DNA of 63,667 nt, counting the filler. It is 8 parts of 8 records of this genome, joined end to end, with 100 filler letters (N's around TTAATTAATTAA, not from the genome) between each part and the next. Parts side by side here need not be neighbours in the genome. Positions count along the whole stretch, not along the records: positions 5,382 to 11,665 come from DRR723986_7593; positions 11,766 to 17,322 come from DRR723986_7594; 6 more parts are not named here. One strand, given 5' to 3'. Under the pieces are notes generated by a model. The model did no database searches, was not told the origin of the DNA, and worked only from the letters and a program-made list of their open reading frames with translations. The number at the start of each line of letters is the position of its first letter. Position 1 is the stretch's first letter. A program made the translations under genes and the position numbers. Positions 5,282 to 23,400 of this stretch are shown piece after piece.

Positions 5282-5381
5282 NNNNNNNNNNNNNNNNNNN
5301 NNNNNNNNNNNNNNNNNNNNNNNNNTTAATTAATTAANNNNNNNNNNNNNNNNNNNNNNNNNNNNNNNNNNNNNNNNNNNN
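5282..5381. other. Artificial contig spacer
   Basis: 44 N + TTAATTAATTAA (stops in all six frames) + 44 N. Confidence 0.99.
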
Positions 5382-6248
5382 CATCGCCTGGTATTTGGCG
5401 ATGTGGTTGCCCACAACCTCATTTGGCTTCTTGAAGGTCATGGTCAGCGTGGTGGATTTCGCCTTGGAGGCCGGGCTGAACCCGCGCACGGTGAAATCAT
5501 CCGCCTCAACCCGCCAGGCGGCGGATTTGAACCCTTCCAGGCGCCGCGCGGTCTGGGCACGCAGGGCAACCTTTTCCATCAGGCTTTCCGCAAAGGCCGC
5601 CACCGTGGCCACCAGCCGCGCATCATCCTGCGCATGGGCGGCGATATCCTGATCCAGCTCCCACAATGCACCATGCAGCGCGACCTGACCATTGTCGGTC
5701 AAGACCTCATCGACCTCGCCCACTTCCACAGTGGTCTCCGTCAGATGTGATGACATCAAATAAGCCGTGGCATTGCCCAGAACATAAAGCGTGACCAATG
5801 CCTCTGCCGCCAACAGCTCGCTGAATTCGCTCTTGCGGGCCGCAGGCAATGACCCTTCCAGATTGGCCCGTTTGAGATCACCCAGCCCCGATTGCTCCGC
5901 CACGTTCTCAGCGACCGCCAGCGCAATCGCTATCGCCCGTCGCAACACATGCAGCACCGTCGCCTGCATCGGGCTGATCAACGTATCGCCCTCATCCGCA
6001 CCTTCGATCCGCGCAATCAATTGCACAGCCCCGGTCGGCACCCTGCGCCGTGTCACAAGCCCCGGTGTGGTGGTGCGAAACCGCCGCCGCGTGCCAAGGC
6101 CCGCAGATTGCTCTGGCACGCTATCATCCCCGGTGGCCTTACCAATCCGCGGCGCATGGTCAAATCCGTCCAACATCGCCTGCGCCATGGGCACATGGCT
6201 TTGAATATCCTCCTCGCGGAGTTCCATCGCATCTGAAATCTGGCTCAT
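5382..6248 (-). CDS. AAA+ ATPase, N-terminal part (ortholog of 12170..14113), truncated by contig end
   Basis: Aligns by eye with the N-terminal ~290 aa of the full ATPase in contig 3 (GTRRRFRxTTPGLVTRR; STTLTMTFKKPNEVVGNHIAKYQAM). Confidence 0.9.
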
Positions 6249-6302
6249 CTTGTAAGGGCCTTCCCTTTTTGGCTCTAAATATTCCCGCCGGAGGCATAAA
6301 AA

Positions 6303-7424
6303 TTAATAACGCAGCACTTGCCCCGATCCGCTCACGACAAATTTTCGCACGGCGGCAAACCCCGGTGGATCCTGCTCTTCCAACACCTGATAGGGGCGTT
6401 GCGGCAGGATGATGCTGCGCTCTTGCCGGGTGGCACCCAGATCGGCGCCCTTGCCGCCAAACGGATCCAGCGCAAAGACCTCCCGTTCAACAGTGCTAAA
6501 CCAGCCCGATTTTTCTTCGATCACGCGGTCGCTGACCAATTCCTCTTCGGTCCAGACCAAAGCCCAATCCTGCCCCTCGGGCGCTTTGGCGCCAGCCAAC
6601 ACATCGCGCAGCGGGCCAGCCTGCCGGGTAAAGGCATGGCTGTACATCGGACCCACATGAAACCGCCGCAACCGCTTGGGGTGCAGGTCGTCAAAATCCT
6701 GATCAAAACCGCGCGCAATTGTCACCAGCTTCAGCCCGCCCAGCGCCTGCGCCGACAGATGCGCCTGCACCTCCGGCCAGCGCCGTTCATCCTTGGGCAG
6801 CCCAACCTTGCCGCTGTCCTCCAGCTCCATCAGATAGATCACCGGCAGGTTCACTTGGCTGTCATAGGTCGCCCAATGCAGCCGGAAGGTGCGCCGCCCT
6901 TCGCTCAGGTTTCCGGTCCAATCGGCCTGCGGATCATTCTGCACCCAGAACAGATCCCCCTTGATCAGCTCCTCATAATAAAGCCGCTGCGACAACGCGA
7001 ATTGCAGCTTGGTCGGCACCTTCCTGTCGCCCAGGATCATTTGGACCATTTCGTTCTTGAGCGTGGCAACCGAAGGCATGTTTTCCAGATGTTTGGCCGC
7101 CTGCTGAGCATCATTGGCCATCGTCATCAGCTCTTCGGCCACCGGAAAACCACTGTCGCGATTGTCGATACTGAGCGAGCCAAAGAACCGCCCCGTTTCG
7201 CGCCCCACCAACAGATACTTTAGGCTCAGCGCCTTGAAGGTGTGGGTCAACATCACCGCATAGCGGGTCAGGATTTCCACCTCATCGCGGTTCAGCTTGC
7301 TTTCCGCCTCCATCACACCGGCCACACGCAACATATGCTGCATGATGCCTTCGAATTTGCGGAAGTACCGGCGCGAGGCAAAGGTATCCATAAGGCCAAC
7401 ATGGTCGCGGGCGGGGTCAGTCAT
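6303..7424 (-). CDS. Conserved hypothetical protein, 373 aa (ortholog of 14167..15285)
   Basis: Full-length similarity to the contig-3 copy (MTDPAxDHVGL...GQVLRY); no recognisable motif. Confidence 0.88.
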   Translation of the reverse strand: MTDPARDHVGLMDTFASRRYFRKFEGIMQHMLRVAGVMEAESKLNRDEVEILTRYAVMLTHTFKALSLKYLLVGRETGRFFGSLSIDNRDSGFPVAEELMTMANDAQQAAKHLENMPSVATLKNEMVQMILGDRKVPTKLQFALSQRLYYEELIKGDLFWVQNDPQADWTGNLSEGRRTFRLHWATYDSQVNLPVIYLMELEDSGKVGLPKDERRWPEVQAHLSAQALGGLKLVTIARGFDQDFDDLHPKRLRRFHVGPMYSHAFTRQAGPLRDVLAGAKAPEGQDWALVWTEEELVSDRVIEEKSGWFSTVEREVFALDPFGGKGADLGATRQERSIILPQRPYQVLEEQDPPGFAAVRKFVVSGSGQVLRY

Positions 7425-7451
7425 CTTTGGGGTTCCGCAAGAACAAGCTGA

Positions 7452-8528
7452 TTATGCCCCATACTGATTGCTGTCATGTTTCTCGATGATCTTCTGGAAC
7501 CGGCGGGCAAAGCGTTCGTCGGCCTTGGCTTTGGCCTCCAGCACTTCGCGGGCAAAGACCATGTGATCTTCGTGCTTCTCCATCATCTCGGCCATCCGCG
7601 CATTGGTGGCAGCACCGATCCCGGCCATGGCAGATTGCGCCTCTTGGTCGGTTTTTACGCCGATCTCGTTGATCCGGTGGGCGACGTCCTGCTGCTGTGC
7701 TGTCTTGAGCGATTTGGTCAGCGCATCATAAAGTACGACCCGCTGCTTGGTGTCTGTCTGCAGCTTGTTGATCAACACCATCTGGGTCGCGGCCTGGTTC
7801 TGCAATGAATCGATCCAGGTTTTGCCCTTCTCAATGTACCGCTCCAGCGTTTGTGATTTCGCCAGCTTGACCTGCTCTTCCTGCACCAACGCATTGTAGC
7901 GGGTGTTCATCTCGGCCAGTTCGGTTTCCAGTTTGGTGCGTTTGGCGGCGTCCGTTTCGCTGGCAATGGCGTTTTCCAGCTTTATAATATCCGGGTCCAT
8001 CCCGCCGATGTCGCTGCGAATGTTCTCAAGCTCACCCACCGTCATCTCGCGTTCGTCCAGAGTCTCGGTCAGGTTGCTTTCAACCTTGACCTTTTGCTCT
8101 TCCAGCATCGCCAACTGCCCTTCGAGCAGCTGCACAATCACGTCGGACTTGCTGATCAAATCCTGCAATTTGTCGTCAATAGAGGCGGAGCGCACCCGTT
8201 CCTGCCGCATACTGTCCGACTTGGCACCGGAAAAGATCCCCACAAAGGTTTCCCAGCCGGTCTTGTTGCGCATTTCATCAAAATCACGGCTGAACCCCGC
8301 GGTCACATCATCCAGCCCCATAATCAGCTCGGCGATATTGGCGTTCATCACCTCGGTATGGGCATGCACGTCCTCAAGCGTGGCATTTTCGATGTCGATC
8401 ATCGCATCGTCGCCCGCTTTCAATTTGGCACGCGCGGTCTCAATCCGGCCGGTCAGTTCGGCGATCTTGCTTTGCGCCTCTGCTACCTGCGCTTGGGATT
8501 CTTTTACCTGTGCATCCAAATTGGCCAT
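7452..8528 (-). CDS. Conserved all-helical / coiled-coil protein (ortholog of 15879..16958)
   Basis: E/Q/K/L-rich heptad pattern, central amphipathic TGWETFVGIF segment; SD GAGGA upstream. Confidence 0.88.
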   Translation of the reverse strand: MANLDAQVKESQAQVAEAQSKIAELTGRIETARAKLKAGDDAMIDIENATLEDVHAHTEVMNANIAELIMGLDDVTAGFSRDFDEMRNKTGWETFVGIFSGAKSDSMRQERVRSASIDDKLQDLISKSDVIVQLLEGQLAMLEEQKVKVESNLTETLDEREMTVGELENIRSDIGGMDPDIIKLENAIASETDAAKRTKLETELAEMNTRYNALVQEEQVKLAKSQTLERYIEKGKTWIDSLQNQAATQMVLINKLQTDTKQRVVLYDALTKSLKTAQQQDVAHRINEIGVKTDQEAQSAMAGIGAATNARMAEMMEKHEDHMVFAREVLEAKAKADERFARRFQKIIEKHDSNQYGA

Positions 8529-8560
8529 CAAACGATCCTCTATTTCAATATCTTAGCCCA

Positions 8561-8590
8561 TATATAGGCAATGTTACGCCGATTTACATC
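8561..8590 (-). promoter_or_regulatory. Conserved operator/promoter of the coiled-coil-AAA operon, copy 1
   Basis: Minus strand GATGTAAATCGGCGTAACATTGCCTATAT; 22/26 identical to 16997..17022; near-palindrome ATGTAA-N7-TAACAT; CCTATAT resembles the alphaproteobacterial RpoH -10. Confidence 0.65.
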
Positions 8591-8648
8591 AGCCTGTTCA
8601 AAAGTTTTTCCGATTGTGCCAAATGCCCCTGATCTTGAAAAGGGCAGA

Positions 8649-9884
8649 TCAATTTGTCTGTTCCTCCGGCCGCACACCGGCCCGCCGAAGGGTCAGCAAC
8701 AACACCAGCAGGCACAAAACCCCCGCCGCCGCGTACCAGACCAAGGTCAGGCGGATATCATCATAAGCCATAGCCGTCCGATCCGAAACCTGCACCGAAG
8801 CGAGCAGCAAACTGCCCACAAACAGCAACCTGCCTGCGAAACTCTGCACGGAGAGGAACGTGGCACGCCCCGCATCGCTCAGCAAAGGTTGCATACGGGC
8901 AATGATAAAGGGCCGCGACAAGGAATTGGGCACCATACGCAAGAACAATATTGCGATGGCAAAGATACTGTTGGTGACGGCCAATGTCGCAATCAGCCCC
9001 ACCTGAATACCAAAGGCCAGCATCAAGAGCGCCGCCAGACCAAACCGCCTGCGCAGCCGCAGCGCAAACAACGTGGCGAGAGCGGACACCAACATCATAA
9101 TCGCAGAGACACCCCCACTGACCATCGGCGCATCCCCTTGCAATCCAATATTGCGCAGGGCTTCGGCGATGAAAGGCTGACCAAAAACAAAAGGAATATG
9201 GCTGAAGCCATACATCAGCACAGACAGCGCGAACAGCCAGACCAAAACCGGAACCCGCATCGCTGTTTGAAAGAGCCGTGCTTGAAACACCGGCCCGGCG
9301 GTCTCGGTTCGGTTCACCTCATGCGGCGGCTCACGGAACCGCAGCGCCACACCAAAACAGGCCGCCTGCGCCGCAGCACCCGCCGCAAAAGCCAGACCAA
9401 ACCCCCATTGCGCCATCAGCCCGCCTGTGAACGCCGACAGGGCAAGCCCGATCAACGAAAACTGCCAACTTCGGGTTTCCTGCGCCTCGGTTTCATCCTC
9501 CCGTCCATCTGCTGCCAGGGATTCATACAAAAACGCATTATCCGTCCCCGATGCAAAAGCCGCACCCGCGCCCAGCAACACTTGCGCCAAGGCAAAGGCG
9601 GCAAAGCTATCCCCAAAAGCGATCAACGCCGCGCCAGCACTGGCCGCAAGCCCCGACGCAATCAGCGTTCGCCTCCGTCCCAGCCGATCCGACATATAAC
9701 CCGACGGAACCTCCATCGCGGTCGTGCCAACATCATAGATCGCATAAAGCAGGATCGCCTCTGCGCCCGACAACTCTTGTTGAAAGAACAGGAACCAGAT
9801 TGCCTGCCAGAACACGAGGTTCTGGAAGAACTTAAACCATGGATACAGCGCAACATTGCGCGCCATAGGGTTGGCGGCGATCAC
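8649..9884 (-). CDS. MFS transporter
   Basis: About 12 TM segments; EVPSGYMSDRLGRRRTL motif A; GAAFASGTDNAFLYESL; GTGA overlap with upstream hydrolase. Confidence 0.9.
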   Translation of the reverse strand: MIAANPMARNVALYPWFKFFQNLVFWQAIWFLFFQQELSGAEAILLYAIYDVGTTAMEVPSGYMSDRLGRRRTLIASGLAASAGAALIAFGDSFAAFALAQVLLGAGAAFASGTDNAFLYESLAADGREDETEAQETRSWQFSLIGLALSAFTGGLMAQWGFGLAFAAGAAAQAACFGVALRFREPPHEVNRTETAGPVFQARLFQTAMRVPVLVWLFALSVLMYGFSHIPFVFGQPFIAEALRNIGLQGDAPMVSGGVSAIMMLVSALATLFALRLRRRFGLAALLMLAFGIQVGLIATLAVTNSIFAIAILFLRMVPNSLSRPFIIARMQPLLSDAGRATFLSVQSFAGRLLFVGSLLLASVQVSDRTAMAYDDIRLTLVWYAAAGVLCLLVLLLTLRRAGVRPEEQTN

Positions 9885-10669
9885 CCGCTGACCAGAGTAT
9901 TGGTCAACTCATGCTCAGGATCGGCCAGTGCATCGATCACATCAAAATGATGTTTGCCCGCATCCACCACCTGCCGTGCGCCCCAAGCCCGCGCCAAGGC
10001 TTCGGCCTGTTCCAAGAATGCCGGACGCTCATCCGCGCCCACCCAGACCGTCACATCCACCCCATGCGGCGGCGTCATGTTCACCGGGCTTTCGGCCATG
10101 GCCTCCGCCTCATCCAACCGCAGATCGGCGTTCATCGAGGTTTGCAACAGCGGCAGCAGATCCGCCACGGGGGAGATTGGCACAACCGTCTTGATCCGGC
10201 CCCGCACATCCCCCGGCAACACCAGCGGATCCATCATCCGCGCTACCAAATGCCCGCCCGCAGAGTGCCCCGCCAAGGCAATCGGCCCAAAGGTTCGGTT
10301 GGCAATGTGGCTTACCGCGGCGGCAATCTGGGTGGTGATTTCACTGATCCGCGCCTGCGGGCACAGCACATAACTTGGCATCGCAACCGCCCAGCCCCGC
10401 GCCAATGCCCCGGCGGCCAGATGCGACCACGCGCTTTTGTCAAAAGCCTTCCAATACCCGCCATGCACAAAGATCAACGTGCCACGCGACACGCCCTCGG
10501 GCTGGAAAAAATCATAGACTTCCCGCTCCGACGCCCCGTATGAGACATCAACCTGCGCCCGCGCCCCAAGTTCGGTGCGAAATGCCGCCGCCGCCGCCGC
10601 CCAACGCGGCGGGTATTCGTCTGCACCATCAATGTAGGCTCCATTGGCATAGGCATCATCAAGCTTCAT
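9881..10669 (-). CDS. Alpha/beta hydrolase (arylformamidase/HSL-like esterase)
   Basis: HGGYW oxyanion motif, GHSAGG nucleophile elbow, C-terminal HHFDV; start taken at MKLDDAYAN. Confidence 0.88.
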   Translation of the reverse strand: MKLDDAYANGAYIDGADEYPPRWAAAAAAFRTELGARAQVDVSYGASEREVYDFFQPEGVSRGTLIFVHGGYWKAFDKSAWSHLAAGALARGWAVAMPSYVLCPQARISEITTQIAAAVSHIANRTFGPIALAGHSAGGHLVARMMDPLVLPGDVRGRIKTVVPISPVADLLPLLQTSMNADLRLDEAEAMAESPVNMTPPHGVDVTVWVGADERPAFLEQAEALARAWGARQVVDAGKHHFDVIDALADPEHELTNTLVSG

Positions 10670-10765
10670 TTGGGTCTCCTGTAGGTATTCCGCCCATAAA
10701 CTGGACCTAGACAATCATAGACTTACTTGCTTTGGGTAGCACAACCAAAACGCGGAGACACCCAA

Positions 10766-11665
10766 ATGACCGACGCTACAACGAATCTCAAATCCCTGCT
10801 CAAAGATCCAAGCCTGCTGGAAACCCGCGCCTATATCGGCGGTAAATGGGTGGATGGCGAGGATGGCACCTTTGACGTGACAAACCCGTCCCGCGGCGAT
10901 GTAATCGCCAAGGTGGCCAACCTCAGCCGCGCTCAGGTGGCCGGCGCCATTTCCCAGGCCGAAGCGGCCCAGAAAGAATGGGCCAGCTGGACCGGCAAGG
11001 AACGTGCAGGCGTTCTGCGCAAATGGTTCGACCTGATGATGGCGAACCAGGACGACCTCGGCGCGATCCTGACCGCAGAGCAAGGCAAACCACTGGCCGA
11101 AGCCAAAGGCGAGGTGGCCTATGGTGCCTCTTTCATCGAGTTTTTCGGCGAAGAGGCCAAACGCATCTACGGTGAAACCATCCCCGGCCACCAGCGCGAC
11201 AAACGCATCACCGTGCTGAAGCAACCCATTGGCGTCGCGGCATCGATCACCCCCTGGAACTTCCCCAATGCAATGATCACCCGCAAAGCCGCACCCGCCT
11301 TGGCCGCCGGTTGTTCTTTCGTCGCCCGCCCCGCCGCCGAAACACCGCTGTCCGCCATCGTCATGGGCGTGCTGGCCGAACGCGCCGGCATCCCCGCAGG
11401 TGTGTTTAATGTGGTGCCGTCCTCCTCGTCCTCTGCAGTGGGCAAGGAGTTTTGTGAAAACCCGGCCGTGCGCAAACTGACCTTCACCGGTTCAACCGAA
11501 GTAGGCCGGATCCTGCTCAAGCAAGCCGCCGACAGCGTCATGAAATGCTCAATGGAACTGGGCGGCAACGCGCCCTTTATCGTGTTCGACGACGCCGATC
11601 TGGATGCCGCTGTCGAAGGCGCGATCATGTGCAAATTCCGCAACAACGGCCAAACCTGCGTCTGC
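10766..11665 (+). CDS. gabD: Succinate-semialdehyde dehydrogenase (NADP+), 3'-truncated
   Basis: EQGKPLAEA, ITPWNFPNAMITRK, FTGSTEVG, MELGGNAPF, KFRNNGQTCVC. Confidence 0.9.
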
Positions 11666-11765
11666 NNNNNNNNNNNNNNNNNNNNNNNNNNNNNNNNNNN
11701 NNNNNNNNNTTAATTAATTAANNNNNNNNNNNNNNNNNNNNNNNNNNNNNNNNNNNNNNNNNNNN
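11666..11765. other. Artificial contig spacer
   Basis: N44-TTAATTAATTAA-N44. Confidence 0.99.
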
Positions 11766-11836
11766 GGGGCTGCGCGGCAGGGCCGCGCTGGTTTGGGGTC
11801 GCGGGCGGTTTGGGTTACACGGGGCGATGCAGTGGG

Positions 11837-12169
11837 TCATGCTTTGCGCCGCCCCACCCAATATCCGCCGCCGAAACAAAGCAGGCCAAGTGGCACCAGA
11901 ACCACCGCCGACATGCTCAGCATCAAAGACCAAAGTGTCAGGAATTCACCAAGCCCGTTGATCTGCCCAGCCATCTCGACGCTCAGTCGATACGTCCCCC
12001 ACAACAGCACCACCGCAGGGGGCACGACGACCGCCAATCCCGTTTTAATCGACGCGGCTCGCCCAGAAATCTCTCCCTTACCGAACCTTGCGCCCAACAC
12101 CAGCGCGACGGGCACCGCGACCACGGCACACATCAGACAGGTGTAGAATGAGACCACCAACAGGACCAT
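11837..12169 (-). CDS. Small membrane protein (110 aa, about 3 TM)
   Basis: Three hydrophobic stretches; ATG directly follows the ATPase TAA. Confidence 0.65.
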   Translation of the reverse strand: MVLLVVSFYTCLMCAVVAVPVALVLGARFGKGEISGRAASIKTGLAVVVPPAVVLLWGTYRLSVEMAGQINGLGEFLTLWSLMLSMSAVVLVPLGLLCFGGGYWVGRRKA

Positions 12170-14113
12170 TTAGGCTTTGCCCTCCAGATACCGTTTCTTC
12201 GCGGCCTCTTGGCGGCCGAAATCACGGACCAGTGCGTCGATGGCGACCTCGTCGGATTTGTCGGCATAGCGGAATTCGCTGTCGGCGTAGCGGTTGATCT
12301 CTTGCACCACCATATCCACCGTGATCGGCACCCGCAGGTCGGCGATCATGGCGTGTTTGGTGTCGTAGTCCTGAAACAGGAACAGGTCAGGGTTTTCCAT
12401 CCATTCGTCCGGCAGCTCAAAATCCATCGCGCGGACTTTGACCGCGTCGGTGATGTTCTTGATGGCACGCCCGGTAAAGCGTTCATCTGCCTGTTGGATC
12501 GCCTTGAGATAGGTGCCCAGCTTGGCAATCGTATCGAGCGCGCCGATCTGGCCCTCGACCTGTTCATAGACGCGCAGCAGCCCGTCCTCGTGCGGGCGGG
12601 CGTGGCCCTCGAAACTGGCGGCGACGGCGCGTTTAATCTCCTGCGCGGCAAAGGCGGTGTGATCGCCCAGCGGGATGTCGTGGTTCTTGCCCATCAGCAG
12701 GTTCAGGATGTCGATGTAATCTTCGCGGGTTTGGGGACCATCGACCAGAAACCGGGCCCCGGCGCGTTGGCGCAGGGCGTCATCGACGTTTTCGGGATAG
12801 TTCGAGAACATGCCAAAGGTGCAGTTGCCGCGCACGACGGTGTTGGCGCCTGCAAAGCTTTCCATCAAGACAGCGGTGATTTCGAGTTGCCCGGCTGAGG
12901 ACTGACGATCCCCGCGTTTGCCCGCCAGTTGGTCGATGTCATCAATGGTGCCAAAGCCAATAACCGAGGGGTCCAGAATGGTGTTGATGAACGCCTTGGC
13001 GTTTTGGCCTGATTTGCCCTGATAGCTGTCGATATTGTCGGTGCTGAGGTTCTGATAGCGGAACGGATAGCCCGCGTTCAGGCAGTAATCATTCAACAGT
13101 CCGGCCATCATCTGGATCAACGTCGTCTTGCCGGTGCCCGGTTTGCCATCCCCCATAAAGGTAAAGATGAACCCGCCCAGATCGGCAAAGGGGTTCAACC
13201 GGCGGTCAAAGTCATAGGCCATCAGCATCTTGGCGAGCTTCATCGCCTGATATTTGGCGATGTGGTTGCCGACGACCTCGTTCGGTTTCTTGAACGTCAT
13301 CGTCAGGGTAGTGGATTTCGCTTTCGACGCGGGTTCGAACCCGCGCAGGGTCAGGTCGTCTGCCTCAACATGCCATGCGGACCCGGAAAATCCGGCCACC
13401 TGCGGCGCGCCCTGCGCCCGTTGGGCGGCCTTTTCCATCAACTGCTCGGCAAAGCCGCTGGCCGCTGCGATCAGATGCGCGTCATCGGGGGCTTTGGTGG
13501 CCAAGACCTGATCCAATTCCCACAGGGCCCCATGCAGGGCGAGTTGACCATTGTCGGTCAGCAGTTCGTCAACCTCGCCGACCTCGACCGTGACCTCGGA
13601 CAGGTGCGAAGACAGGAGATAGGCCAGCGCATTGCCCAGAGTGTGGGCGGTAATCAGCGCCTCGCCGGTCAACAGGTCTGAGAATTCGGACTTGCGCGCG
13701 GGGGGCAAATCCCCCGCCAGATTGGCGCGTTTCAAATCGCCCAGCGCGGTTTGATCGGCGTAGATCTCGCCCATCGCGAGGGCAATCGCCACGGCCCGGC
13801 GCAGGGCATGTTGCACCGTCGCCTGTAATGGTGAAGTCAGTGCATCGCCATCATCCGCCGCCTCGATCCGGTCAACCAGATGCACCCCATCGGTGCGCGC
13901 GGTGCGCCGTGTCACCAACCCCGGTGTGGTGGACCGAAACCGCCGCCGCGTGCCAACGCCCGGGCTGCGTTCTGCCGGGGCGTTTGCGGAGGGCGCGACC
14001 GCCGTTGCAATCCGGGGGGCATGTTCGAACCCTTCGAGCAACACGGTTGCGGCCGGGTAATGTTTGCGAATATCCGCCTCGGGCAATTCCATTTGGTCAG
14101 AATTCAAGCTCAT
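12170..14113 (-). CDS. Classic-clade AAA+ ATPase with a long helical N-terminal domain
   Basis: Walker A GKPGTGKT, pore-loop-like IDSYQGKS, Walker B FGTIDDID, SRH SNYPENVDDALRQR; start at MSLNSDQ (SD AGAGG; matches ortholog start). Confidence 0.92.
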   Translation of the reverse strand: MSLNSDQMELPEADIRKHYPAATVLLEGFEHAPRIATAVAPSANAPAERSPGVGTRRRFRSTTPGLVTRRTARTDGVHLVDRIEAADDGDALTSPLQATVQHALRRAVAIALAMGEIYADQTALGDLKRANLAGDLPPARKSEFSDLLTGEALITAHTLGNALAYLLSSHLSEVTVEVGEVDELLTDNGQLALHGALWELDQVLATKAPDDAHLIAAASGFAEQLMEKAAQRAQGAPQVAGFSGSAWHVEADDLTLRGFEPASKAKSTTLTMTFKKPNEVVGNHIAKYQAMKLAKMLMAYDFDRRLNPFADLGGFIFTFMGDGKPGTGKTTLIQMMAGLLNDYCLNAGYPFRYQNLSTDNIDSYQGKSGQNAKAFINTILDPSVIGFGTIDDIDQLAGKRGDRQSSAGQLEITAVLMESFAGANTVVRGNCTFGMFSNYPENVDDALRQRAGARFLVDGPQTREDYIDILNLLMGKNHDIPLGDHTAFAAQEIKRAVAASFEGHARPHEDGLLRVYEQVEGQIGALDTIAKLGTYLKAIQQADERFTGRAIKNITDAVKVRAMDFELPDEWMENPDLFLFQDYDTKHAMIADLRVPITVDMVVQEINRYADSEFRYADKSDEVAIDALVRDFGRQEAAKKRYLEGKA

Positions 14114-14166
14114 GTCACGCAACCTCTTTTAACAATCTTCAAATACGGCAATTCCGGACGCGGCAG

Positions 14167-15285
14167 TCAGTACCGCAAAACCTGCCCGGTGGCGCTGACC
14201 ACAAATTTGCGCACGTCGGCAAACCCCGGCGGGTTCTGTTCGGCCAGCACCTGAAACGGGCGCTGGGGCAGGATGATGGAGCGCTGCATCCGGGTGGTGC
14301 CCGTCTCGGCGCCCTGCCCGCCAAAGGGATCTAGGGCGAAGACCTCGCGCTCAACAGTCGAGAACCAACCGGCGCGCTCTTCGATCACCTGTTCGCTTTC
14401 CAGCTCTTCGGTGGTCCAGGCCAGCGCCCAATCTTGACCCTCGGGAGCTTCGGCCTCGGCCAGAACCCGGCGCAGGGGGCCGGACTGTTCGGTATAGGCC
14501 GACGAATACATCGGCCCCACGTGGATGCGTTTCAGCGACTTGGGGTGCAGATCGTCAAAGTCCTGATCAAACCCCTTGGCAATCGTCAGCAGTTTCAGCC
14601 CCGCCATCGACTGCGCCATCAGGTGGGCCTGTACCTCGGGCCAGCGGCGCTGATCCTTGGGCAGGGTGGTTTTGCCGCTGTCCTCAAGCTCCATCAGGTA
14701 GATGACCGGCAGATTGATCTGACTGTCATAGACGGCCCAATGCAGCATGAACCGCCGCCGGTCGCCATCCGTGCTGATCCAGAGACATTCCGGATCATTG
14801 CGCGCCCAGAACAACTCGCCCTTGAGCAGTTCCTCGTAATACTGCCGCTGGGACAGGGCGAATTGCAGCTTGGTCGGCACCTGTTGTTGGCCGATGATGG
14901 TGCGGACCATATCATCCTTGAGCTCGGCCTCGGACGGCATGTTGGCCAGATGCCGCTGCGCCTGTTGCGCGTCATTGGCCATGGTCAACAATTCTGCTGC
15001 CACCGGAAACCCGCTGTCGCGCTTGTCCATATTGAGGCTGCCAAAGAACCGACCCGTATCCCGCCCGACCAGCAGGTACTTCATGCTGAGCGCGCGAAAG
15101 GTATAGAGCAGCCCCGAGAGATAGCGCGAGATGATCTTGACCTCTTCTTTAGAGATCGCACCCTCTGCCTCCATATTCGCGGCGACACGCAACAGATGCA
15201 CGGTGATCCCCTCAAATTTGCGGAAATACCGTCGCGAGGCAAAGGTGTCGGTCAGGCCAACGTGGTCATGCGCGGGGTCAGTCAT
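14167..15285 (-). CDS. Conserved hypothetical protein, 372 aa
   Basis: Ortholog of 6303..7424; start overlaps the stop of the upstream micropeptide. Confidence 0.88.
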   Translation of the reverse strand: MTDPAHDHVGLTDTFASRRYFRKFEGITVHLLRVAANMEAEGAISKEEVKIISRYLSGLLYTFRALSMKYLLVGRDTGRFFGSLNMDKRDSGFPVAAELLTMANDAQQAQRHLANMPSEAELKDDMVRTIIGQQQVPTKLQFALSQRQYYEELLKGELFWARNDPECLWISTDGDRRRFMLHWAVYDSQINLPVIYLMELEDSGKTTLPKDQRRWPEVQAHLMAQSMAGLKLLTIAKGFDQDFDDLHPKSLKRIHVGPMYSSAYTEQSGPLRRVLAEAEAPEGQDWALAWTTEELESEQVIEERAGWFSTVEREVFALDPFGGQGAETGTTRMQRSIILPQRPFQVLAEQNPPGFADVRKFVVSATGQVLRY

Positions 15286-15460
15286 GGGTATCCTTTTTGT
15301 CCGATTGCAGGCGGTTCATCACGCCGACCGTTATTCCAGCGACACCGCCCGCAACGGCTGTGTGCACCCAAAACGCGACGTCCAAGGCCCATTGCATCAA
15401 AAGCCCTGTCGACACGCCCAGCAGAATGGCCACCGCATAAGATTTCAAAGTCGTTTTCAT
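15278..15460 (-). CDS. Two-TM micropeptide (60 aa)
   Basis: MKTTLKSYAVAILLGVSTGLLMQWALDVAFWVHTAVAGGVAGITVGVMNR...; SD GAGGTG; paralog of 15468..15632. Confidence 0.7.
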   Translation of the reverse strand: MKTTLKSYAVAILLGVSTGLLMQWALDVAFWVHTAVAGGVAGITVGVMNRLQSDKKDTHD

Positions 15461-15467
15461 GATCACC

Positions 15468-15632
15468 TCAGGCCCATCTGCGGATCAGCGCCCCCATGGT
15501 GATAAACCCTGCGGCCACGGCGGCGGCTGTTTGAACGACAACACCCGGATCAAAGGCCCAGTTTACCAGCAAAGCGACCAAAGCGCCGACACCAACGCCG
15601 ATGCTGATCGCTAAGTTCTTTTTCGTATTCAA
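15468..15632 (-). CDS. Two-TM micropeptide (54 aa; below ORF-track cutoff)
   Basis: Hand translation: strong SD GGAGGAGG, TTG start, MNTKKNLAISIGVGVGALVALLVNWAFDPGVVVQTAAAVAAGFITMGALIRRWA*. Confidence 0.7.
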   Translation of the reverse strand: MNTKKNLAISIGVGVGALVALLVNWAFDPGVVVQTAAAVAAGFITMGALIRRWA

Positions 15633-15675
15633 ACTCTGCCTCCTCCATACGGGTGACTACCTCTTGTCTCCGCAC

Positions 15676-15876
15676 TCATTCCTTTAACCTCATACGGCTT
15701 ACCAGCTTAACTGCGCCCACAATTGAAGTAATAAAAACCATTGATCCGACGCCCCATATCGCAGGGGAAGGCCACAGCTTGGCCCAAACTAAGAGAAGCA
15801 CACCAGCAAAACCCAACTGAGCCAACCAAACGGTCCACGAAGAAGGGGTGTTCGACCAAAAAGACCGATCTAGCAC
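15676..15876 (-). CDS. Trp-rich two-TM micropeptide (66 aa)
   Basis: GTG start 2 nt after the coiled-coil gene stop; two hydrophobic segments and a basic C-tail; visibly lower GC than flanks. Confidence 0.6.
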   Translation of the reverse strand: MLDRSFWSNTPSSWTVWLAQLGFAGVLLLVWAKLWPSPAIWGVGSMVFITSIVGAVKLVSRMRLKE

Positions 15877-15878
15877 CC

Positions 15879-16958
15879 TTAGCCCCCGTAAAGGTTCTTA
15901 TCGTGCTTCTCGACGATCGCCGCAAACCGGCGGGCAAAGCGTTCGTCGGCTTTGGCTTTCTTCTCTAGCACGTCGCGGGCGAACACCATGTGGTCCTCGT
16001 GGGCGTCCAGCATGTCGGCCATTTTCTGGTTCGTCGCGGTGCCGATGGCGGCCATGGCGGTTTGCGCCTCTTGGTCGGTTTTGACGCCGATTTCGTTGAT
16101 GCGGTGGGCGACGTCCTGCTGTTGGGCCGTTTTCAGCGAGCTGGTCAGCGCGTCATAGAGCACCACGCGCTGCGCGGTGTCTGTCTGCAGCTTGTTGATC
16201 AGCACCATCTGCGTCGCCGCTTGGTTCTGCAGGGAATCGACCCAGGTTTTGCCCTTTTCGATGTAACGCTCCAGCGTCTGACTTTTGGCCAGCTTGACCT
16301 GTTCGTCCTGCACCAGAGCATTATAGCTCTTGTTCATTTCGGCCAGTTCGGTTTCCAGCTTGGTGCGCGCCGCCGCATCCTGTTCCACCGCGATTTTGTT
16401 TTCCAAGGCGATGATCGCCGGGTCCATACCCAGAATGTCGGCGCGGACATTTTCCAGCTCTTGCACCGTGAATTCCCGGTCATCCAGCGTCGAGGTCAGA
16501 TTTACCTCGACCTTTTCGCGCTGTTCCTCGAGCACCGCCAACTGTCCTTCGAGCAGCTGAACGATCACATCCGACTTGGCGATCAGATCCTGCAGCTTGT
16601 CGTCAATGTTTGCAGAGCGGATTCGCTCCTGACGCATGGAATCCGACTTGGCCCCGGCAAAAATGCCAACAAAGCTCTCCCATCCGGTTTTCGAGCGCAT
16701 CTCGTCAAAATCTTTGGAAAACGCGCTGGTCACATCATCCAAGCCCATGATCAGCTCGGCAATATTGGCGTTCATCACGTCCGTATGGGCGTGCACATCC
16801 TCGAGCGTGGCGTTTTCGATATCAATATCGGCCTCGCCCGCATCAATTTTGGACCGTGCAGATTCAATGCGCCCGGTCAGACCTTGGATCTTGGCCTGAC
16901 TTTCTTTTACCTTCTGCTGCGTTTCCCGAATGATTGCATCAAATTCTGAGTCAGACAC
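15879..16958 (-). CDS. Conserved all-helical / coiled-coil protein, 359 aa
   Basis: Ortholog of 7452..8528; GTG start with AAGGGGA SD. Confidence 0.88.
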   Translation of the reverse strand: MSDSEFDAIIRETQQKVKESQAKIQGLTGRIESARSKIDAGEADIDIENATLEDVHAHTDVMNANIAELIMGLDDVTSAFSKDFDEMRSKTGWESFVGIFAGAKSDSMRQERIRSANIDDKLQDLIAKSDVIVQLLEGQLAVLEEQREKVEVNLTSTLDDREFTVQELENVRADILGMDPAIIALENKIAVEQDAAARTKLETELAEMNKSYNALVQDEQVKLAKSQTLERYIEKGKTWVDSLQNQAATQMVLINKLQTDTAQRVVLYDALTSSLKTAQQQDVAHRINEIGVKTDQEAQTAMAAIGTATNQKMADMLDAHEDHMVFARDVLEKKAKADERFARRFAAIVEKHDKNLYGG

Positions 16959-16990
16959 GGCTCAAATCCCCTTTTGTTACTGTAATACTC

Positions 16991-17022
16991 ATTAGTTAGG
17001 TAATGTAACGGTGATTTACATC
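16991..17022 (-). promoter_or_regulatory. Conserved operator/promoter of the coiled-coil-AAA operon, copy 2
   Basis: Perfect inverted repeat ATGTAA-N7-TTACAT (17003..17021) followed on the minus strand by CCTAACT; nearly the same distance to start codon as copy 1. Confidence 0.65.
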
Positions 17023-17307
17023 CCCCCAACACACTCTTTCCGCGAAAGTTTTGCAAACCTGCCTCAGAAAGAAAACACATATCTTTACCGCACAAACATG
17101 TGACATGCAGGTACACAGATCCGCCGATCATGCACTTTTTTCAAATTGCCCCTTGAACGAATCCCGATCCCGTTCCATATCAGATGCGCTTACGTTATTC
17201 CTATTCGACCACTGTCTCCCGTTTACCGGCACTCAGTCTTTCGATCCAGGCCGACTACGCAGGGCTACCGCACTCAAGCAGGTAGCAACATTATGGAGAC
17301 TACGGAT

Positions 17308-17322
17308 ATGGCCACTGGCACC
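17308..17322 (+). CDS. Probable start of a cold-shock (CspA-family) protein, truncated
   Basis: SD GGAGA then MATGT, the usual alphaproteobacterial Csp N-terminus (MATGTVKWFN); only 5 codons visible. Confidence 0.45.
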
Positions 17323-17422
17323 NNNNNNNNNNNNNNNNNNNNNNNNNNNNNNNNNNNNNNNNNNNNTTAATTAATTAANNNNNNNNNNNNNNNNNNNNNN
17401 NNNNNNNNNNNNNNNNNNNNNN
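17323..17422. other. Artificial contig spacer
   Basis: N44-TTAATTAATTAA-N44. Confidence 0.99.
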
Positions 17423-17426
17423 CCAG

Positions 17427-20400
17427 GTGGACTCTGGGGGCTGCAGCACGTCGGGCGTGGAGGTGACGGCACTGAGCACCACGTCGTACCGGGCGGTGGT
17501 GACGTGCGCGGCGTCCGGGCCCTGGGCGATCTACGAGACGTTCGGAGGCGGTTGGCAGCTGGTGCGGCGCGTGGCGAGCGGGACGGCGTGGCACCAGGCG
17601 ACGGACAACCTCGCCGGCACGGCGGTGTACGGGACGTTCTCGGCAGACCCAACAGTCGACGCGTCGTTCTCCGTGGCGTTCGACGGCGCCTCGTTCGACC
17701 AGTTCCTGTTCGCCTCCGGGGACGGGGCGCTGTGGCTGGTGGTGTCCAAGGCCGACGTGGCGCAGACCGGCGCCGCCGTCGCCGCCACGGTGCTGGCGTC
17801 CTCCACGTCGCCGAGCGCGGGGTACAGCGCCACGTGGCAGAACCAGGCCGGGGTCGCCGAGGAGCCGTGGATCTCGCTGGGCAACTACGCCGACGCGGCG
17901 GCCAGCGGCGAGTTCCTCTACGCCGAGGCGTCCACGGCGTCGTTCACGAGCGTGCTGGGCGCGCACGGGGGCGCCAACGTGTTCGTCCGCAGCTCCACCG
18001 CGGGGCCCAACGCGCACACGCTGGCGGGGCGGTTCTCGCTGGGGCTCGCGGCGTCGCCCGCGGCCACGGACAACGTGGGCAACGTGGTCACCGCGGCCAA
18101 CGGCCCGCTCACGCTGGACATCGACGACGCCAGTCCCGTGCCCGTGGTCACGTCGGCGCGGGCCACGCCCACCAACCAGAACACGAACACGTTCACGATC
18201 ACGTTCAACGAGGACGTGGTGGGGTTCGGGTCGTCGGACCTGACGTTCGCCGCGGGCACCACGGGGGCGGCGATGGGCACGCCCTCGGCCGTCAGCGCGT
18301 ACCAGTACAAGGTGCTCGTCAACTCGGCCACGCTGGAGGGCACGTACACGCTCTCGGTGAACACTGCGGGCGGCGGCCGGGACCGCGCGGGCAACGTCCT
18401 CTCCACGGCGTCGTTCGCGGTGGTGGTGGACCGCACCGCGCCCGTGGCCACCGTGTCGTCGGTGCAGCCGCTGCGCACCAACCAGCCCACCAACACGTTC
18501 AGCGTGGTGTTCGACACGGACGTGTACGACTTTGGCGTGGACGACCTCTCGTTCCTGCCGGTGACGACGGGCGCCAGCGTGGCCGCGGTCGCGGGCGTCA
18601 GCGGGCCGCGCGAGTTTGCGTTCCTGGTCAGCGGCGCCGCGTCCGAGGGCACGTACTCGCTCGCGGTGGACGCGTCCAAGGGGGACGCGCACGACCTGGC
18701 CGGCAACGCGCCGGCCACCTCCAGCGCGGTGTCGGTGACGATCGACCGCACCTCCCCCGTGGCCACGCTGTCGCTCGCGGTGGCGGGCCCGACCAACGTG
18801 GCCGCCAACACGCTCACCGTGGTGTTCAGCGAGCAGACGTACGACTTTGGCGCGGACGACGTGGTGCTGGGCGCCGGCGCCACCAACGCCCAGATCGCCA
18901 GCGTCGCCGCGGCGGCGGGCAACACGGACGGCACGCGGTACGTGGTGGTGGTGTCGGGGATCGACACGGACGGGACCTACACGCTGTCCGTCAGCGCCAA
19001 CGACGCGCACGACTACGCGGGCAACCTGGTGGCGAGCGCCGGGCCAAAGTCCGTGCTGTTCGACCACACCCCGCCCGTGCCCACCATCTCGGGCCCCAAG
19101 GCGTCGGGCCTGACCGTCAACGACGCGCCCATCGACTTTGCCATCGTCCTCAGCGAGGCGTCCACCAACCTGGTGCTGGCCGACCTGGCGCTGGCCAACT
19201 GCAACAGCCCGGTGTGGAGCGTCGTGTCGTCGTCGCAGTACGGGCTGGCGTGCGCGGCGAACGACGGCCAGGCCGTGACGGTGACCGTGCCGGCGGGCTG
19301 CTTCACCGACGCCGCGGGCAACGCCAACACGGCGGCCGCCACCATCACGCTCAACTCGGACACCACGCCGCCCACGGCCACCGTGTCGTCGGCGCTGTAC
19401 ACGACGGGGGCGTACACCAACGCGGCCACGGCGACGTTCGCGATCGCGCTGTCGGAGCCGGCCACCGACTTTGCGCAGGGCGACCTGGGCCTGATCGGGT
19501 GCGCCAGCCCGTCGTTCAGCGCGTCGTCGGCGCAGTCGTACTCGGTCACGTGCTCGCTCACCAACAACGTCAAGACCGAGGTGTGGGTCAAGGCGGGCAG
19601 CTTCTCGGACGCGGGCGACAACTTCAACGCGGGCGACTCCAACATCTTCGTGGTCAACTCGGACAAGACGGCGCCCACCGTGACCGTGTCCGCGGCCACG
19701 GCGGGCCCCACCAAGTCCACCGCGATGACGTGGACGGTGCAGTTCAGCGAGGCGGTGTACAACTTTGGGGCGCAGCACGCCACGCTCGCGGCCTCGGGCG
19801 GCGGGGCGGTGGCGAGCGGGCCCACGCTGGCGACCACCAGCACGGACCGCACCAAGTACACGCTCCAGGCCGTCTCGGGCGCGGACGGCACGTTCACGCT
19901 GTCCGTGCCGGCCACCACCGGGGTCGTGGACCGCGCGGGCAACACGCTGCAGGCGGCGTCCAACACCAACGCCGCCACGCTGGTGGACACCACCCCGCCG
20001 GTGGGCACGGTCACGCTGCAGAGCCACGCGGGCCCCACCAACGTCGCGTACATGGTGTGGCGGTTCTCGTTCGACGAGCCCGTGTACGGCTTCGCCGCGG
20101 CGTCGGACGTGCGCGTGACGCTCAACGGCGCCACGGCGTCCAGCGGCTTCGACGCGCCCGTGCTCCGCACCACCGTGACCGCCAACCAGGCGTTCGACGT
20201 GTCCGTGCTGGCGGCCACGAGCGGCACGTTCGGCGCGTCGCTGGCGGCCAGCGCGGTCACCGACCTCGCCGGGAACGCCAACGTGGCGGCGTCGGCCGAC
20301 AGTGCCGTGGTGGTGGACCTGGCGCGCCCCACCGTCGCCGTGTCGCTGGTGTCCGCGCAGGGGCCGACCTACAACGCGTCCATGACGTGGCGGGCCGTGG

Positions 20401-23400
20401 TCGCGGACGCCCAGGCGCACGGCGTGCGGTGGGTGGCGGGCGCCCCCGAGGGCCTGCTGTGCGCCGCGGACGCGGTCCTGTCCGGCGACGTGTTCCTCTC
20501 CGCCGAGGGGTTCGTCTCGGCGTCGACCGCGCACGCCGCCGCCAGCGCGGGCCACCACGCGCAGTTCACGTTCCGGGACCTGAGCGGGGGCAACCTGTGG
20601 GTCAAGGCGCGGTGCCCCGACGCGTCGTCCAACGCCTGGTACGTCAACGGCGCGCTGTGGACGCTCGCCACGTCGTCCACGTTCACGTGGCAGCAGTACG
20701 GCACGGTCAGCTCGGCCACCGTGCGGCTGGACGCCAGCGAGCCGGGGTGCGACATTGCCCTCGCGTTCGTGGGGTCCGTCACCCCGCAGTCCGCGTGGAC
20801 CAAGCACTGTCCCCTGCGCGATCCCACCACCACCACGGCTACCACGACGACCACCACCACCACCGTGGGTGAGTGGCGGTTCTCGGAGGGCGCTGGGAGC
20901 GCCGCGGCGGACGGTTCCGGGCTCGGGCACGCGCTCGCGGGCGTCGGCGCTGCCAACTCGGCGTGGCTGGCGCGCGGCGTGTTCGGGCCGGGCCTGCGGC
21001 TGAGCGGCGCCGCCGCCATCACCGTGCCCTCGGCGGTGTTCGACAGCGTGGGGAGCGACGTGACGGTGGCGCTGTGGGTGCGCGGGACGTCCGGGTCGCT
21101 GCCGGCGGCCAACAGCCTCCTCACCGCGCGCGACGCGTCGTCGCAGACCAGCCTGGCCATCCAGATCGCCACGGCGGCGGAGGAGGTGGTGTGGACGGCC
21201 GGGTTCGCGTCCGGGTCGGCCGACTCGGTGTCGGCGTCGCTGGCGGGCACCGACTACGCCGGCACGTGGACGCACTGGGTGTTCACGAAGGACGGCACGG
21301 TCGGCGGCACGATGGAGGTGTACCGCAACGGCGCGCTGCTCGCGTCGGCGTCCGGCAAGACCAAGGCCGTGTCCGTGGCCACCGCCTCCATCGACACGTT
21401 CTACGGCGACGTGGACGAGGTCGTGGTGCTGAGCGCGCACGTGGACGCGCACGCGGCGCACCGGCTGTTCGCGCGCGTGCCGGCGGCCGCCGTGGGAGGC
21501 GCCGGCACCGGCACCAGCGCCACGGCCACCTCGGACGCGGGCGCCACGGCCGCCAACGCGGTGGACGGCGACGACGCCACGGCGTGGACGTCTGCGGCCG
21601 GCGCGGCCACCGCCACGGTCGTCGTGGACTTTGGCGCGAGCGCGATGGTGCGCCTGGCCCGCCTGCGCGTGGTGTGGCCCGAGGGCGGGCTGGCGGCGGC
21701 GTACGTGGTGTCGGTGTCCGCGGACGCGACGACGTGGCTGGAGTCGGCGCGGGTGAGCGGGGCGTCGTGCTCGACGGGCGGCGCGGGCGCGCGCGTGGAC
21801 GTGGTCAGCGTGGGCGATCGCGGAATGCTGGACGTGCGCTACGCGCGCGTGGTCATGTCGCAGCCCTGCGGCTCGCAGTTCTCCATCGCCGAAGTGCGGG
21901 GCGTGGGGCCCGAGTTCGCGCTGCTCGCCAGCAACGACGGTACGGTGGTGGCCGACGCCGCGTACTGGCAGTCGCGCTGCTCGTCCGTGCAGCTCGCGGG
22001 CAGCGGGTGGGAGGTGCTGGTGCTGATGGGCGAGTACTCGGACCTGTACTACCCCGCCACGGGCGAGTCGCTGTGCTCGGTGCTGGCGGGCGCCGTCGGG
22101 AGCTACTCGTGGGCGATGGGCGGCAGCGTGGACGGCGGCGTGGTGGGCCCCACGGGCGCGCAGGCGTACGTGGACGCGGACGACATGGCGGGCGGCACCG
22201 ACGCGCTGGGCGGCAAGGCGGCGCCGGGCGACGGCCGCGACTCGACGAGCGCGTGGGGCGCGACGGCGGCCAGCGGGCTGGCCGGGGGGTGCTGTCACGC
22301 AGACGACGGCGACACCGCGGCGTGGGGGCGGGCGTTCCGCGTGTACGTGCGGCCCGGCGTCCCGGCCTCCTTGGTCGCCACCAACGGCGGCGCGTTCGTC
22401 AACCTCACGGCCACGGCGGTGGCCGCCAACGCCAACATGTACTTGAGCGCGGTGGCGGTGCGCAGCGGGTCGTTCGTGCTGTCGTACGCCGGCGGCGGCG
22501 TGGCGGACCAAGCGGGCAACCGCGCCACAGCGCTCGCCTCGTCGGGCACCACCACGGTGCAGACCGACCTGGTCGCGCCCACGGTCGTGCTCGCGCTGGG
22601 CGTGCCCGAAGTGTACGGGTACCTCGCGGTCACCGTGTACGCCACGTTCTCCGAGGCGGTCACTGGGTTCTTCCTCAGCGACGACTACACCGAGTACCTG
22701 GACATTGCCGCGGAGGGCGGCGGGGTGGTGGGCACGGTCGCCCTGGTGGACACGGAGCTGTCCGCCGCCACGGGCGAGCAAGTGTACACGATCCTGGTGA
22801 CGGTGCTCTCCAGCGGCACGTACACGCTCACGGTGGCGGCCGGGTCGGCGGTGGACGTGGGCGGCAGCACGAACCCGGCGTCCAACAGCGTCACCGTGCT
22901 GGTGGACAACGAGCTGCCCACGGCCACCGTGGCGCTCGCGTCGTCGTCCGTGGGGCAGGCCACCAACAACCCCGCCATGCGCTGGACCGTGAGCTTTTCG
23001 GAGGAGGTGGTGGGCGGCTCGGACCTCAAGTGCGCTCGCGACGGCGTGCTGACGCCGAGCTTTGTGATGGACGACGAGGGCCACGTGGTCGTGCAGAACG
23101 ACGGGCTGACCGCGGGCCAGGCCGTGTACTCTTTCCGGCAGCGCGGTGCCCTGTGGATGAAGACGCAGTGCCCTTCCACCGCCGAGAACGCGTTCTACGT
23201 GGACCGGAACAACGACGTGCGCGCCATGTGGAACGTCACCGTGTCGTCCGTGTTCGCGTGGAGCAAGTACAGCGGCGACATTGCAAGCTCCACCGTGACG
23301 TTGTACGACGTGGTGCCCAACTGCCGCATCGCCATGCTGTACCTTGGGCTGGAGACCCCAAGTGACACGTGGCAAAAGGACTGCCACGTGCTGCCCGTGC

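Follow-up and report, generated by a model that had tools for sequence, protein, structure and literature searches.

AAA+ ATPases of the classic clade operate with dedicated partner proteins in ESCRT disassembly, SNARE recycling, microtubule severing and proteasomal unfolding. To our knowledge, few such ATPase-partner sets are known in bacteria. Here, we describe a bacterial operon in which a classic-clade AAA+ ATPase is encoded together with a 359-amino-acid (aa) helical protein, a 372-aa protein of unnamed family, a DUF6638 protein and a fifth, membrane-anchored protein. Its first three genes, most likely from two different Rhodobacteraceae, are carried by a stretch of DNA of 63,667 nucleotides (nt), spacers included, referred to below as the window.

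The Vps4/ESCRT-III system (CdvC/CdvB in archaea) resembles this operon in that the gene for a classic-clade AAA+ ATPase lies beside the gene for a helical protein. Vps4 itself ranks among the closest solved relatives of the operon's ATPase, the helical partner has a conserved C-terminal helix, and action close to the membrane would be a further common point. Unlike Vps4, however, the ATPase has no detected MIT or Vps4_C domain and carries an Asp-Asp pair in its Walker B motif, while the helical protein, with its 359 aa, shows no Snf7/PspA similarity and two extra soluble partners have no ESCRT counterparts. Of the solved structures, the one that scores best against the ATPase core comes from the FtsH/YME1 i-AAA family, and Walker A, the pore loop and sensor-1 align with it. 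Yet the operon's ATPase lacks a protease domain and a transmembrane segment, and possesses its own 290-aa N-domain and 190-aa C-terminal region. TelA (PF05816) shares with the helical protein an all-helical character, a similar length, two short local resemblances and a weak lead from the Protein Atlas, but profile similarity between the two is lacking, and a true TelA is encoded at another locus of the same genomes.

PspA/Vipp1 and its AAA+ proteins offer, as an idea, the coupling of a helical membrane-stress protein to an AAA+ chaperone. The AAA+ partners of PspA presented in the accessible part of PMC11237479 include a two-domain AAA+ protein, a Vps4-like ATPase with a partner combining TPR and six transmembrane segments (TPR+6TM), and an AAA+ protein fused to a beta-propeller. 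None of the associations in that part has the gene set of this operon, and the helical protein is not PspA. An earlier interpretation of the window, made from the DNA alone (the sequence-only reading), had been unable to assign the genes to any characterised system, and no such system matches them in the present analysis either.

A conserved five-gene operon

The window consists of eight contigs joined with 100-nt spacers, N around TTAATTAATTAA, the first three of which lie at 5282-5381, 11666-11765 and 17323-17422. The genes of interest are ORFs (open reading frames) of two contigs, 5382-11665 for copy 1 and 11766-17322 for copy 2, both of which are from marine Rhodobacteraceae.

7452..8531, minus strand: copy 1, gene 1, 359-aa helical protein, 80.6% identical to copy 2
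6303..7424, minus strand: copy 1, gene 2, 373-aa protein, 73.5% identical to copy 2
5382..6248, minus strand: copy 1, gene 3, N-terminal fragment of the AAA+ ATPase, first 289 codons, truncated by the contig end
15879..16958, minus strand: copy 2, gene 1, 359-aa helical protein
14167..15285, minus strand: copy 2, gene 2, 372-aa protein of unnamed family
12170..14122, minus strand: copy 2, gene 3, complete 650-aa classic-clade AAA+ ATPase

These ORFs confirm what the sequence-only reading had reported, namely the same order (helical protein, 372/373-aa protein, AAA+ ATPase) on two contigs with different flanks. The peptides that it quoted, KLAKSQTLERYIEKGKTW and NQAATQMVLINKLQTDT, are present in both copies, as is the TGWExFVGIF segment, in the forms TGWETFVGIF and TGWESFVGIF. 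The ATPase fragment of copy 1, which corresponds to the N-terminal part of the AAA protein, has 67.7% protein identity to copy 2, and ungapped DNA segments of the two copies are 72-81% identical. Synonymous sites between the copies are near saturation (dS about 1.0-1.2), and the ratio of nonsynonymous to synonymous substitution (dN/dS) is 0.14 for the helical gene, 0.20 for the 372-aa gene and 0.25 for the AAA gene. Because these ratios are low, the ORFs are real genes under purifying selection rather than chance reading frames. Orthologues of the ATPase start at an ATG located three codons within the 12170..14122 ORF.

In a scan of species-representative genomes, 78 of 80 loci have the helical, 372-aa and ATPase genes in this order, and the two loci without all three genes are both truncated at contig ends. 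The three genes thus form a conserved unit, as had been proposed, but the description of a three-gene machine requires extension, as the unit comprises four to five genes with the addition of DUF6638 and of membrane-anchored DUF1523 or DUF2333. When the flanking ORFs of 20 diverse loci were clustered, DUF6638 (PF20343) lay downstream of the ATPase gene in all 20, with scores of 781 bits in locus L001 and 234 bits in locus L118 (cut-off 27). The order helical, 372-aa, ATPase, DUF6638 is also kept in 10/10 further divergent loci, one of which is truncated inside DUF6638. Neighbouring genes in these divergent loci touch or overlap, with an ATPase/DUF6638 overlap of 1-4 nt in L133 and L134. The four core genes are also found together on a 0.9-Mb megaplasmid of Vibrio vulnificus and in Sinorhizobium meliloti Ak57.

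The fifth gene encodes DUF2333 in 13/13 Rhizobiales-type loci and DUF1523 in 75/80 Rhodobacteraceae loci and three others, all five misses being contig ends. A hydropathy scan gives two hydrophobic spans for DUF1523, one for DUF2333 and none for the four core proteins, so any association with the membrane would come solely from this fifth gene. Altogether, the five genes of the operon are tightly packed and strictly co-inherited; they encode one pore-loop AAA+ ATPase together with three soluble partner proteins and one membrane-anchored protein. Neither DUF6638 nor DUF1523 is found anywhere in the window, where three genes are seen because the contig ends 400 nt past the ATPase.

Distribution and genomic context

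The distribution counts come from samples of genomes, in which a miss is not proof of absence. Among 201 sampled genomes of the Rhodobacteraceae-level family, 88 carry the 372-aa gene and 91 carry DUF6638; both are present in 87, the 372-aa gene only in one, DUF6638 only in four and neither in 109. Of the 92 genomes with either gene, 87 carry both. Carriers represent 33/201 genomes in the order containing the Mesorhizobium-type locus, 23/401 genomes of the phylum (with a profile built from divergent members) and 5/401 genomes of the class (with the full profile). They include Ruegeria, Phaeobacter, Leisingera, Sulfitobacter and Paracoccus, as well as Mesorhizobium, Nitratireductor, Aquibium, Sinorhizobium, Rhizobium, Shinella, Vibrio, Psychromonas and Neptuniibacter. 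The 372-aa family numbers 462 representatives (50% clustering, E<=0.001).

The flanks are ordinary metabolic housekeeping genes that vary by lineage. No match to the operon was found in phage records, and the ten matches in a plasmid collection are all non-mobilizable replicons of 0.88-4.6 Mb; the genomic context thus suggests no sign of a mobile element. In the source annotation, the proteins are nearly always given as 'hypothetical protein', while some helical homologues are automatically labelled as chromosome segregation protein SMC/ATPase, coiled-coil, GumC domain-containing, CwlO-like hydrolase or phage-related protein. In a search of sequencing runs, no RNA run was listed, and no run matched as much as half of the words. 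A search of the literature on DUF6638, DUF2333 and DUF1523, supplementary tables excepted, returned nothing on function, and the name DUF6638 itself was not found. In the accessible part of PMC5256989, DUF2333 appears merely as a neighbour within a type VI secretion system (T6SS) locus.

The AAA+ ATPase

The ATPase matches Pfam AAA (PF00004) with 45.7 bits over residues 326-459 (cut-off 21.2), and its nearest solved relatives in the PDB are the YME1 i-AAA ATPase domain (5ubv, E 7.9e-6, the best match), fidgetin-like 1, Vps4 and a 26S subunit (Rpt). In an alignment of 19 ATPase sequences, down to 47% identity with the window's protein, the N-domain (about 290 aa) varies, and both the AAA core and the C-terminal region (about 190 aa) are highly conserved. 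The Walker A motif GDGKPGTGKT pairs with GPPGTGKT of YME1, and its residues G326 and P328 to T334 are invariant in the 19 sequences. The same is true of the pore loop, Y367-Q368-G369, which pairs with YVG of YME1, and the sensor-1 region around N441 (SNYPE), likewise invariant, pairs with TNFPE. R451, R453 and R457 are also invariant; the printed YME1 alignment stops at the first of these arginines, which by their position are candidate arginine fingers. The classification as a classic-clade AAA protein thus stands, on a Pfam match above the cut-off and on the aligned Walker A, YQG pore loop and sensor-1 region. Neither a protease domain in the ATPase nor a partner protease in the operon was found. 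We conclude that, within a known kind of enzyme, the ATPase forms a new subfamily, and that its partners are new families.

The helical protein

Searched as a single sequence or as a profile, the helical protein has no Pfam, NCBIfam, PADLOC family or PDB match beyond a weak one to NsnC. It contains a single proline (P180), and 62 columns are invariant in an alignment of 23 helical sequences that extends down to 33% identity with the window's protein. Among the invariant residues are E94 and F100 of the TGWExFVGIF loop and F341, R343, R344, F345 and Y357 at the C-terminus, where the last five residues define an F-x-R-R-F ... Y motif. The protein had been described as unusually conserved for a coiled coil. 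Its identity across genera (84-89%) is indeed notable and enzyme-like, but it is not extreme, as neighbouring housekeeping enzymes reach 75-94%.

Membership of the PspA/ESCRT-III group, which the sequence-only reading had considered, is not supported at the level of sequence: hhalign gives a probability of 3.1% against three PspA sequences, none of 31 helical members matches Snf7 or PspA (PF04012) at E<=1, and PspA genes are found at other loci in 3/5 genomes.

The 372-aa protein and DUF6638

The 372-aa family has no Pfam match in any of 72 diverse members, and the 372-aa protein has no sequence match in NCBIfam, PADLOC or the PDB. Its AlphaFold2 model has a predicted local distance difference test (pLDDT) score of 95.2 and a predicted template modelling (pTM) score of 0.93, and consists of a helical bundle at about residues 14-155 followed by an alpha/beta domain. 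When this model was compared with the PDB using Foldseek, nothing was found at E<=0.001, and the query TM-score was at most 0.16 among all the matches listed. A full VIA-align scan gave a best Z of 5.1, for helical hairpins only. The tunnelling-fold (T-fold) enzymes QueD2, PTPS and DHNA scored Z 4.2-4.4 over residues 175-328, and urate oxidase and QueF-like proteins appear among the weak Foldseek rows (E 0.4-0.7), all of them too low to assert a shared fold. In the model, a T-fold for the C-terminal domain would therefore be a lead, not a match.

For DUF6638, a Protein Atlas search that skipped its own family gave no usable match, and sequence and profile searches of the PDB with DUF6638 and DUF2333 returned nothing credible. 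A near-invariant I-D-(x)-S-G-(F/Y) motif is present both in the 372-aa family (residues 56-93) and in DUF6638 (residues 23-50), after an N-terminal helical stretch. Paralogy of the two proteins was considered and dropped as not shown: hhalign gives 0.7% and only the ID..SG(F/Y) motif is common to both.

Proposed mechanism and alternative explanations

The interpretation that we favour, with confidence somewhat short of even, is that the operon encodes a membrane-proximal AAA+ remodelling machine that acts on the helical protein as its client. In such a machine, the ATPase would assemble as a hexamer, and its invariant Tyr-Gln-Gly pore loop would pull on its protein substrate on the cytoplasmic side of the inner membrane, where the fifth protein (DUF1523 or DUF2333) would serve as the anchor. 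The most likely client would be the helical protein itself, which may form a defined bundle or polymer because its sequence is conserved. The C-terminal F-x-R-R-F...Y helix could then be the handle bound by the N-domain of the ATPase or by an adaptor, and the 372-aa and DUF6638 proteins could act as adaptors or regulators. By analogy, this logic resembles the assembly/disassembly cycles of ESCRT-III/Vps4, SNARE/NSF or PspA-type systems. The purpose of the machine may be envelope maintenance, membrane remodelling or the turnover of a membrane-proximal assembly.

Several observations weigh against this interpretation. Homology of the partner proteins to those of ESCRT-III, SNARE or PspA-type systems was not detected, and no MIT or Vps4_C domain was detected in the 650-aa ATPase with Pfam at E<=0.1, only AAA being reported. 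The Walker B motif reads IDDID where YME1 has IDELD, so that an aspartate replaces the catalytic glutamate; D394-D395 are invariant in the 19 ATPases, and Asp-Asp is also present in Vibrio. An enzyme with this pair may hydrolyse ATP slowly or act as a switch. The putative handle is not fully fixed either: the Vibrio protein has F-Y-E-R-F, with Glu in place of R343, while F, R, F and Y are kept. Its acidic-x-x-Phe-x-x-Arg-Phe-x-x-Ile/Val pattern may resemble the MIM1 helix bound by Vps4. In addition, the link to the membrane is indirect: DUF1523 and DUF2333 are unrelated families, and neither adjoins the core at the Vibrio locus.

A more specific form of the proposal would be an ESCRT-III/Vps4-like bacterial system for membrane remodelling or repair built from unrelated parts, in which a new self-assembling helical protein, polymerised at the inner membrane on the DUF1523/DUF2333 anchor, would be disassembled by the ATPase through the F-x-R-R-F helix, with two cofactors of new fold setting the place and time. 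This bolder version we regard as improbable.

Among the alternatives, general protein quality control or extraction is unlikely, though the likeliest of them. The ATPase would then act on other clients, such as misfolded or mislocalised membrane proteins, in the manner of Msp1/ATAD1 or FtsH-type enzymes, and the helical, 372-aa and DUF6638 proteins would be adaptors or regulators rather than substrate. Such a role would fit an ATPase domain whose nearest solved relative is that of YME1 i-AAA, a membrane-anchored partner in the operon, the recurrence of small hydrophobic ORFs within it and its housekeeping flanks. However, the operon includes neither a protease domain nor a partner protease, and the constant co-occurrence of three dedicated soluble partners points to a specific rather than a general client. 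Moreover, no heat-shock promoter is evident, the candidate -35 element lacking the TTG that RpoH promoters require according to the accessible part of PMC3441632.

The helical protein could alternatively form a filament, either cytoskeleton-like or acting in the cell cycle, whose severing by a katanin/spastin-like ATPase would shape growth or division. The protein is long, nearly proline-free and strongly conserved, the ATPase is nearest to the fidgetin/Vps4 group, each genome has a single copy of the operon, and the Rhodobacteraceae loci have kept their gene order and flanks. Since only 88/201 genomes of the family carry the gene, it is not a core component of the cell cycle, and we consider a filament quite improbable.

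The same low standing is given to a third possibility, that the helical protein is a very distant, membrane-active relative of TelA or ClyA and the operon an envelope-stress or toxic-anion module. A neighbouring cluster in the Protein Atlas has TelA in 10% of its members, TGWESFVG pairs with SWWERLFG and LERYIEKGK with LALYIAAGE in TelA stretches, and length and helical character are similar. Straightforward TelA/KlaA membership, raised in the sequence-only reading, is nevertheless not upheld: hhalign probabilities are 0.26%, 0.68% and 0.24% with alignments of five and 24 TelA sequences (0.24% against the 24), none of 31 helical members matches Pfam TelA even at E<=1, and a true TelA (E 1e-95 to 1e-109) is encoded at another locus in 5/5 carrier genomes. 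The hydrophobic stretch of the helical protein, at just about 10 residues, also argues against a remote relationship. The local match of the helical loop EMRSKTGWESFVGI (residues 82-99) to the TelA stretch ELDPNRKRSWWERLFGG (residues 107-124) is statistically insignificant; the order of the two local matches is the same in both proteins.

A role in anti-phage defence or conflict, also mooted earlier, is very unlikely. In its favour, the distribution of the operon is patchy, foreign genes are found in the operon (a Fic gene in 4/4 Mesorhizobium-type loci; an insertion sequence (IS) and an endonuclease gene in S. meliloti Ak57), and PADLOC-DB 2.0 returns TRIP13 and IetA for the ATPase (E 2e-4 to 0.03) and NsnC for the helical protein (E 0.006). 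These matches are unspecific, however, in that they cover the generic ATPase core or sit near noise, and the 372-aa, DUF6638, DUF1523 and Mesorhizobium proteins have no PADLOC match at all. The flanks are metabolic housekeeping genes rather than defence islands, there is one copy per genome with conservation about equal to that of neighbouring enzymes, no phage record carries the operon, and the plasmid matches are all to large, non-mobilizable replicons.

Origin of the two copies

The two copies are most likely orthologues from two Rhodobacteraceae in one mixed assembly rather than the result of a duplication. The G+C content is 47-64% along both contigs that carry the genes versus 71-75% in the next contig, and the assembly is therefore a mix of organisms. 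The nearest relatives of copy 2 are loci L001 and L002 (98-99% identity), and that of copy 1 is locus L097 (81-93%), the next-best loci reaching only 70-83%. The 372-aa gene is present in one copy each in the 3/3 reference genomes reached via related loci, and a single match is found in 86/88 positive genomes of the family sample, the other two being fragments split over contigs. What had been read as a double capture is therefore most likely orthology, given single-copy reference genomes and copies that are 68-81% identical in protein. That both lie within one assembly window is what would speak for paralogues inside one genome, a true duplication, but single matches in the reference and family genomes, nearest relatives that differ between the copies and contigs of contrasting G+C content make this highly improbable.

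Copy 1 is flanked by three ORFs that, judged by eye, resemble a transporter, an esterase and an aldehyde dehydrogenase; copy 2 is flanked by an AT-rich leader and then the contig end. On each of its strands, the next contig, 17423-23470, shows open frames about 2000 codons long; it has direct repeats spaced 303-315 nt and probably encodes a large repeat protein of a different organism.

Insertion slots inside the operon

Two junctions, helical/372-aa and ATPase/DUF6638, behave as insertion slots. The corresponding features of copy 2 are the following.

15278..15876, minus strand: variable slot, the helical-to-372-aa gap of 590 nt with three small hydrophobic ORFs
15278..15466, minus strand: small hydrophobic ORF, 62 aa, in the slot
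15468..15632, minus strand: small hydrophobic ORF, 54 aa, in the slot
15676..15876, minus strand: small hydrophobic ORF, 66 aa, in the slot
11837..12169, minus strand: hydrophobic ORF, 110 aa, abutting the ATPase stop, in the slot ahead of DUF6638

The helical-to-372-aa junction ranges from 5 nt to 685 nt across genomes. The three small ORFs of copy 2 are absent from copy 1 and common only to L001 and L002. Of 17 loci examined, four have a gap of 5-48 nt without any ORF of at least 30 aa, and several of the remaining loci contain unrelated small hydrophobic ORFs. In tblastn searches of the loci collected to that point, the 110-aa ORF, a lineage-specific insert, matched only L001 (85%) and L002 (39%).

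A 276-aa Fic-domain gene (Pfam Fic, E 4.9e-20; L118 9803-10633) lies between the 372-aa gene and the ATPase gene in 4/4 Mesorhizobium-type loci (L118 and L119-L121), and is absent from the Sinorhizobium locus and L139-L141. The space between the ATPase and DUF6638 genes is occupied in S. meliloti Ak57 by a gene with an endonuclease domain and by an ISRm16 transposase (L170 9069-10814). The 3.7-Mb record of this strain is labelled 'plasmid pSymB', a label that is doubtful given its size.

Upstream elements

A conserved dyad, GATGTAA-N7-TNACAT, precedes the helical-protein gene in both copies.

17003..17022, minus strand: dyad upstream of gene 1, copy 2, followed by CCTAAC (CCTATNT in relatives)
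8571..8590, minus strand: the same dyad (GATGTAAATCGGCGTAACAT) in copy 1, followed by CCTATAT; coordinates counted by hand from the sequence

In Roseobacter-type loci (L001-L080), some 45-70 nt separate the dyad from the helical-protein gene downstream of it. Each of five whole genomes has the dyad at the operon (5/5), and the five together have only three other sites, compared with none for the reversed control; it looks like a candidate dedicated operator and promoter. One of the extra dyads, found in genome G001, likewise has the extended form, GATGTAAATTGTGTTTACATTTCCTAGAT (L168 1501-1520; G001:C6:2513845-2513864). On one side of it is a membrane ORF of 141 aa; on the other, an ORF of 142 aa begins 70 nt downstream and could be the second gene of a regulon shared with the operon. 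The CCTATNT sequence resembles a -10 element and would fit the RpoH pattern. An RpoH (heat-shock) promoter upstream of the operon was rejected, since the candidate -35 reads ATG, without TTG.

In one divergent locus (L142 6141-7250), the helical-protein gene is immediately preceded, on its own strand, by the heat-shock repressor gene hrcA (Pfam HrcA, E 3e-60), which itself follows rph, a Ham1-family gene and a HemN-like gene. Table entry F9 of PMC3687685 is a ChvI-bound fragment within SMc02733 of S. meliloti 1021, at chromosome position 2,587,012. SMc02733 is near the cho genes that flank the operon in Ak57, and it may be a gene of the operon.

Significance

Two proteins of the operon, the helical and the 372-aa protein, have no family name, and the latter folds confidently without a clear match in the PDB. 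The Rhodobacteraceae-level family in which it was sampled includes the Roseobacter group, which is of ecological importance. With Sinorhizobium meliloti and Phaeobacter inhibens among the carriers of the operon, its function is directly testable by genetics and biochemistry. If the helical protein does form a polymer that is disassembled by the ATPase, the operon would represent a new assembly/disassembly machine at the bacterial inner membrane.

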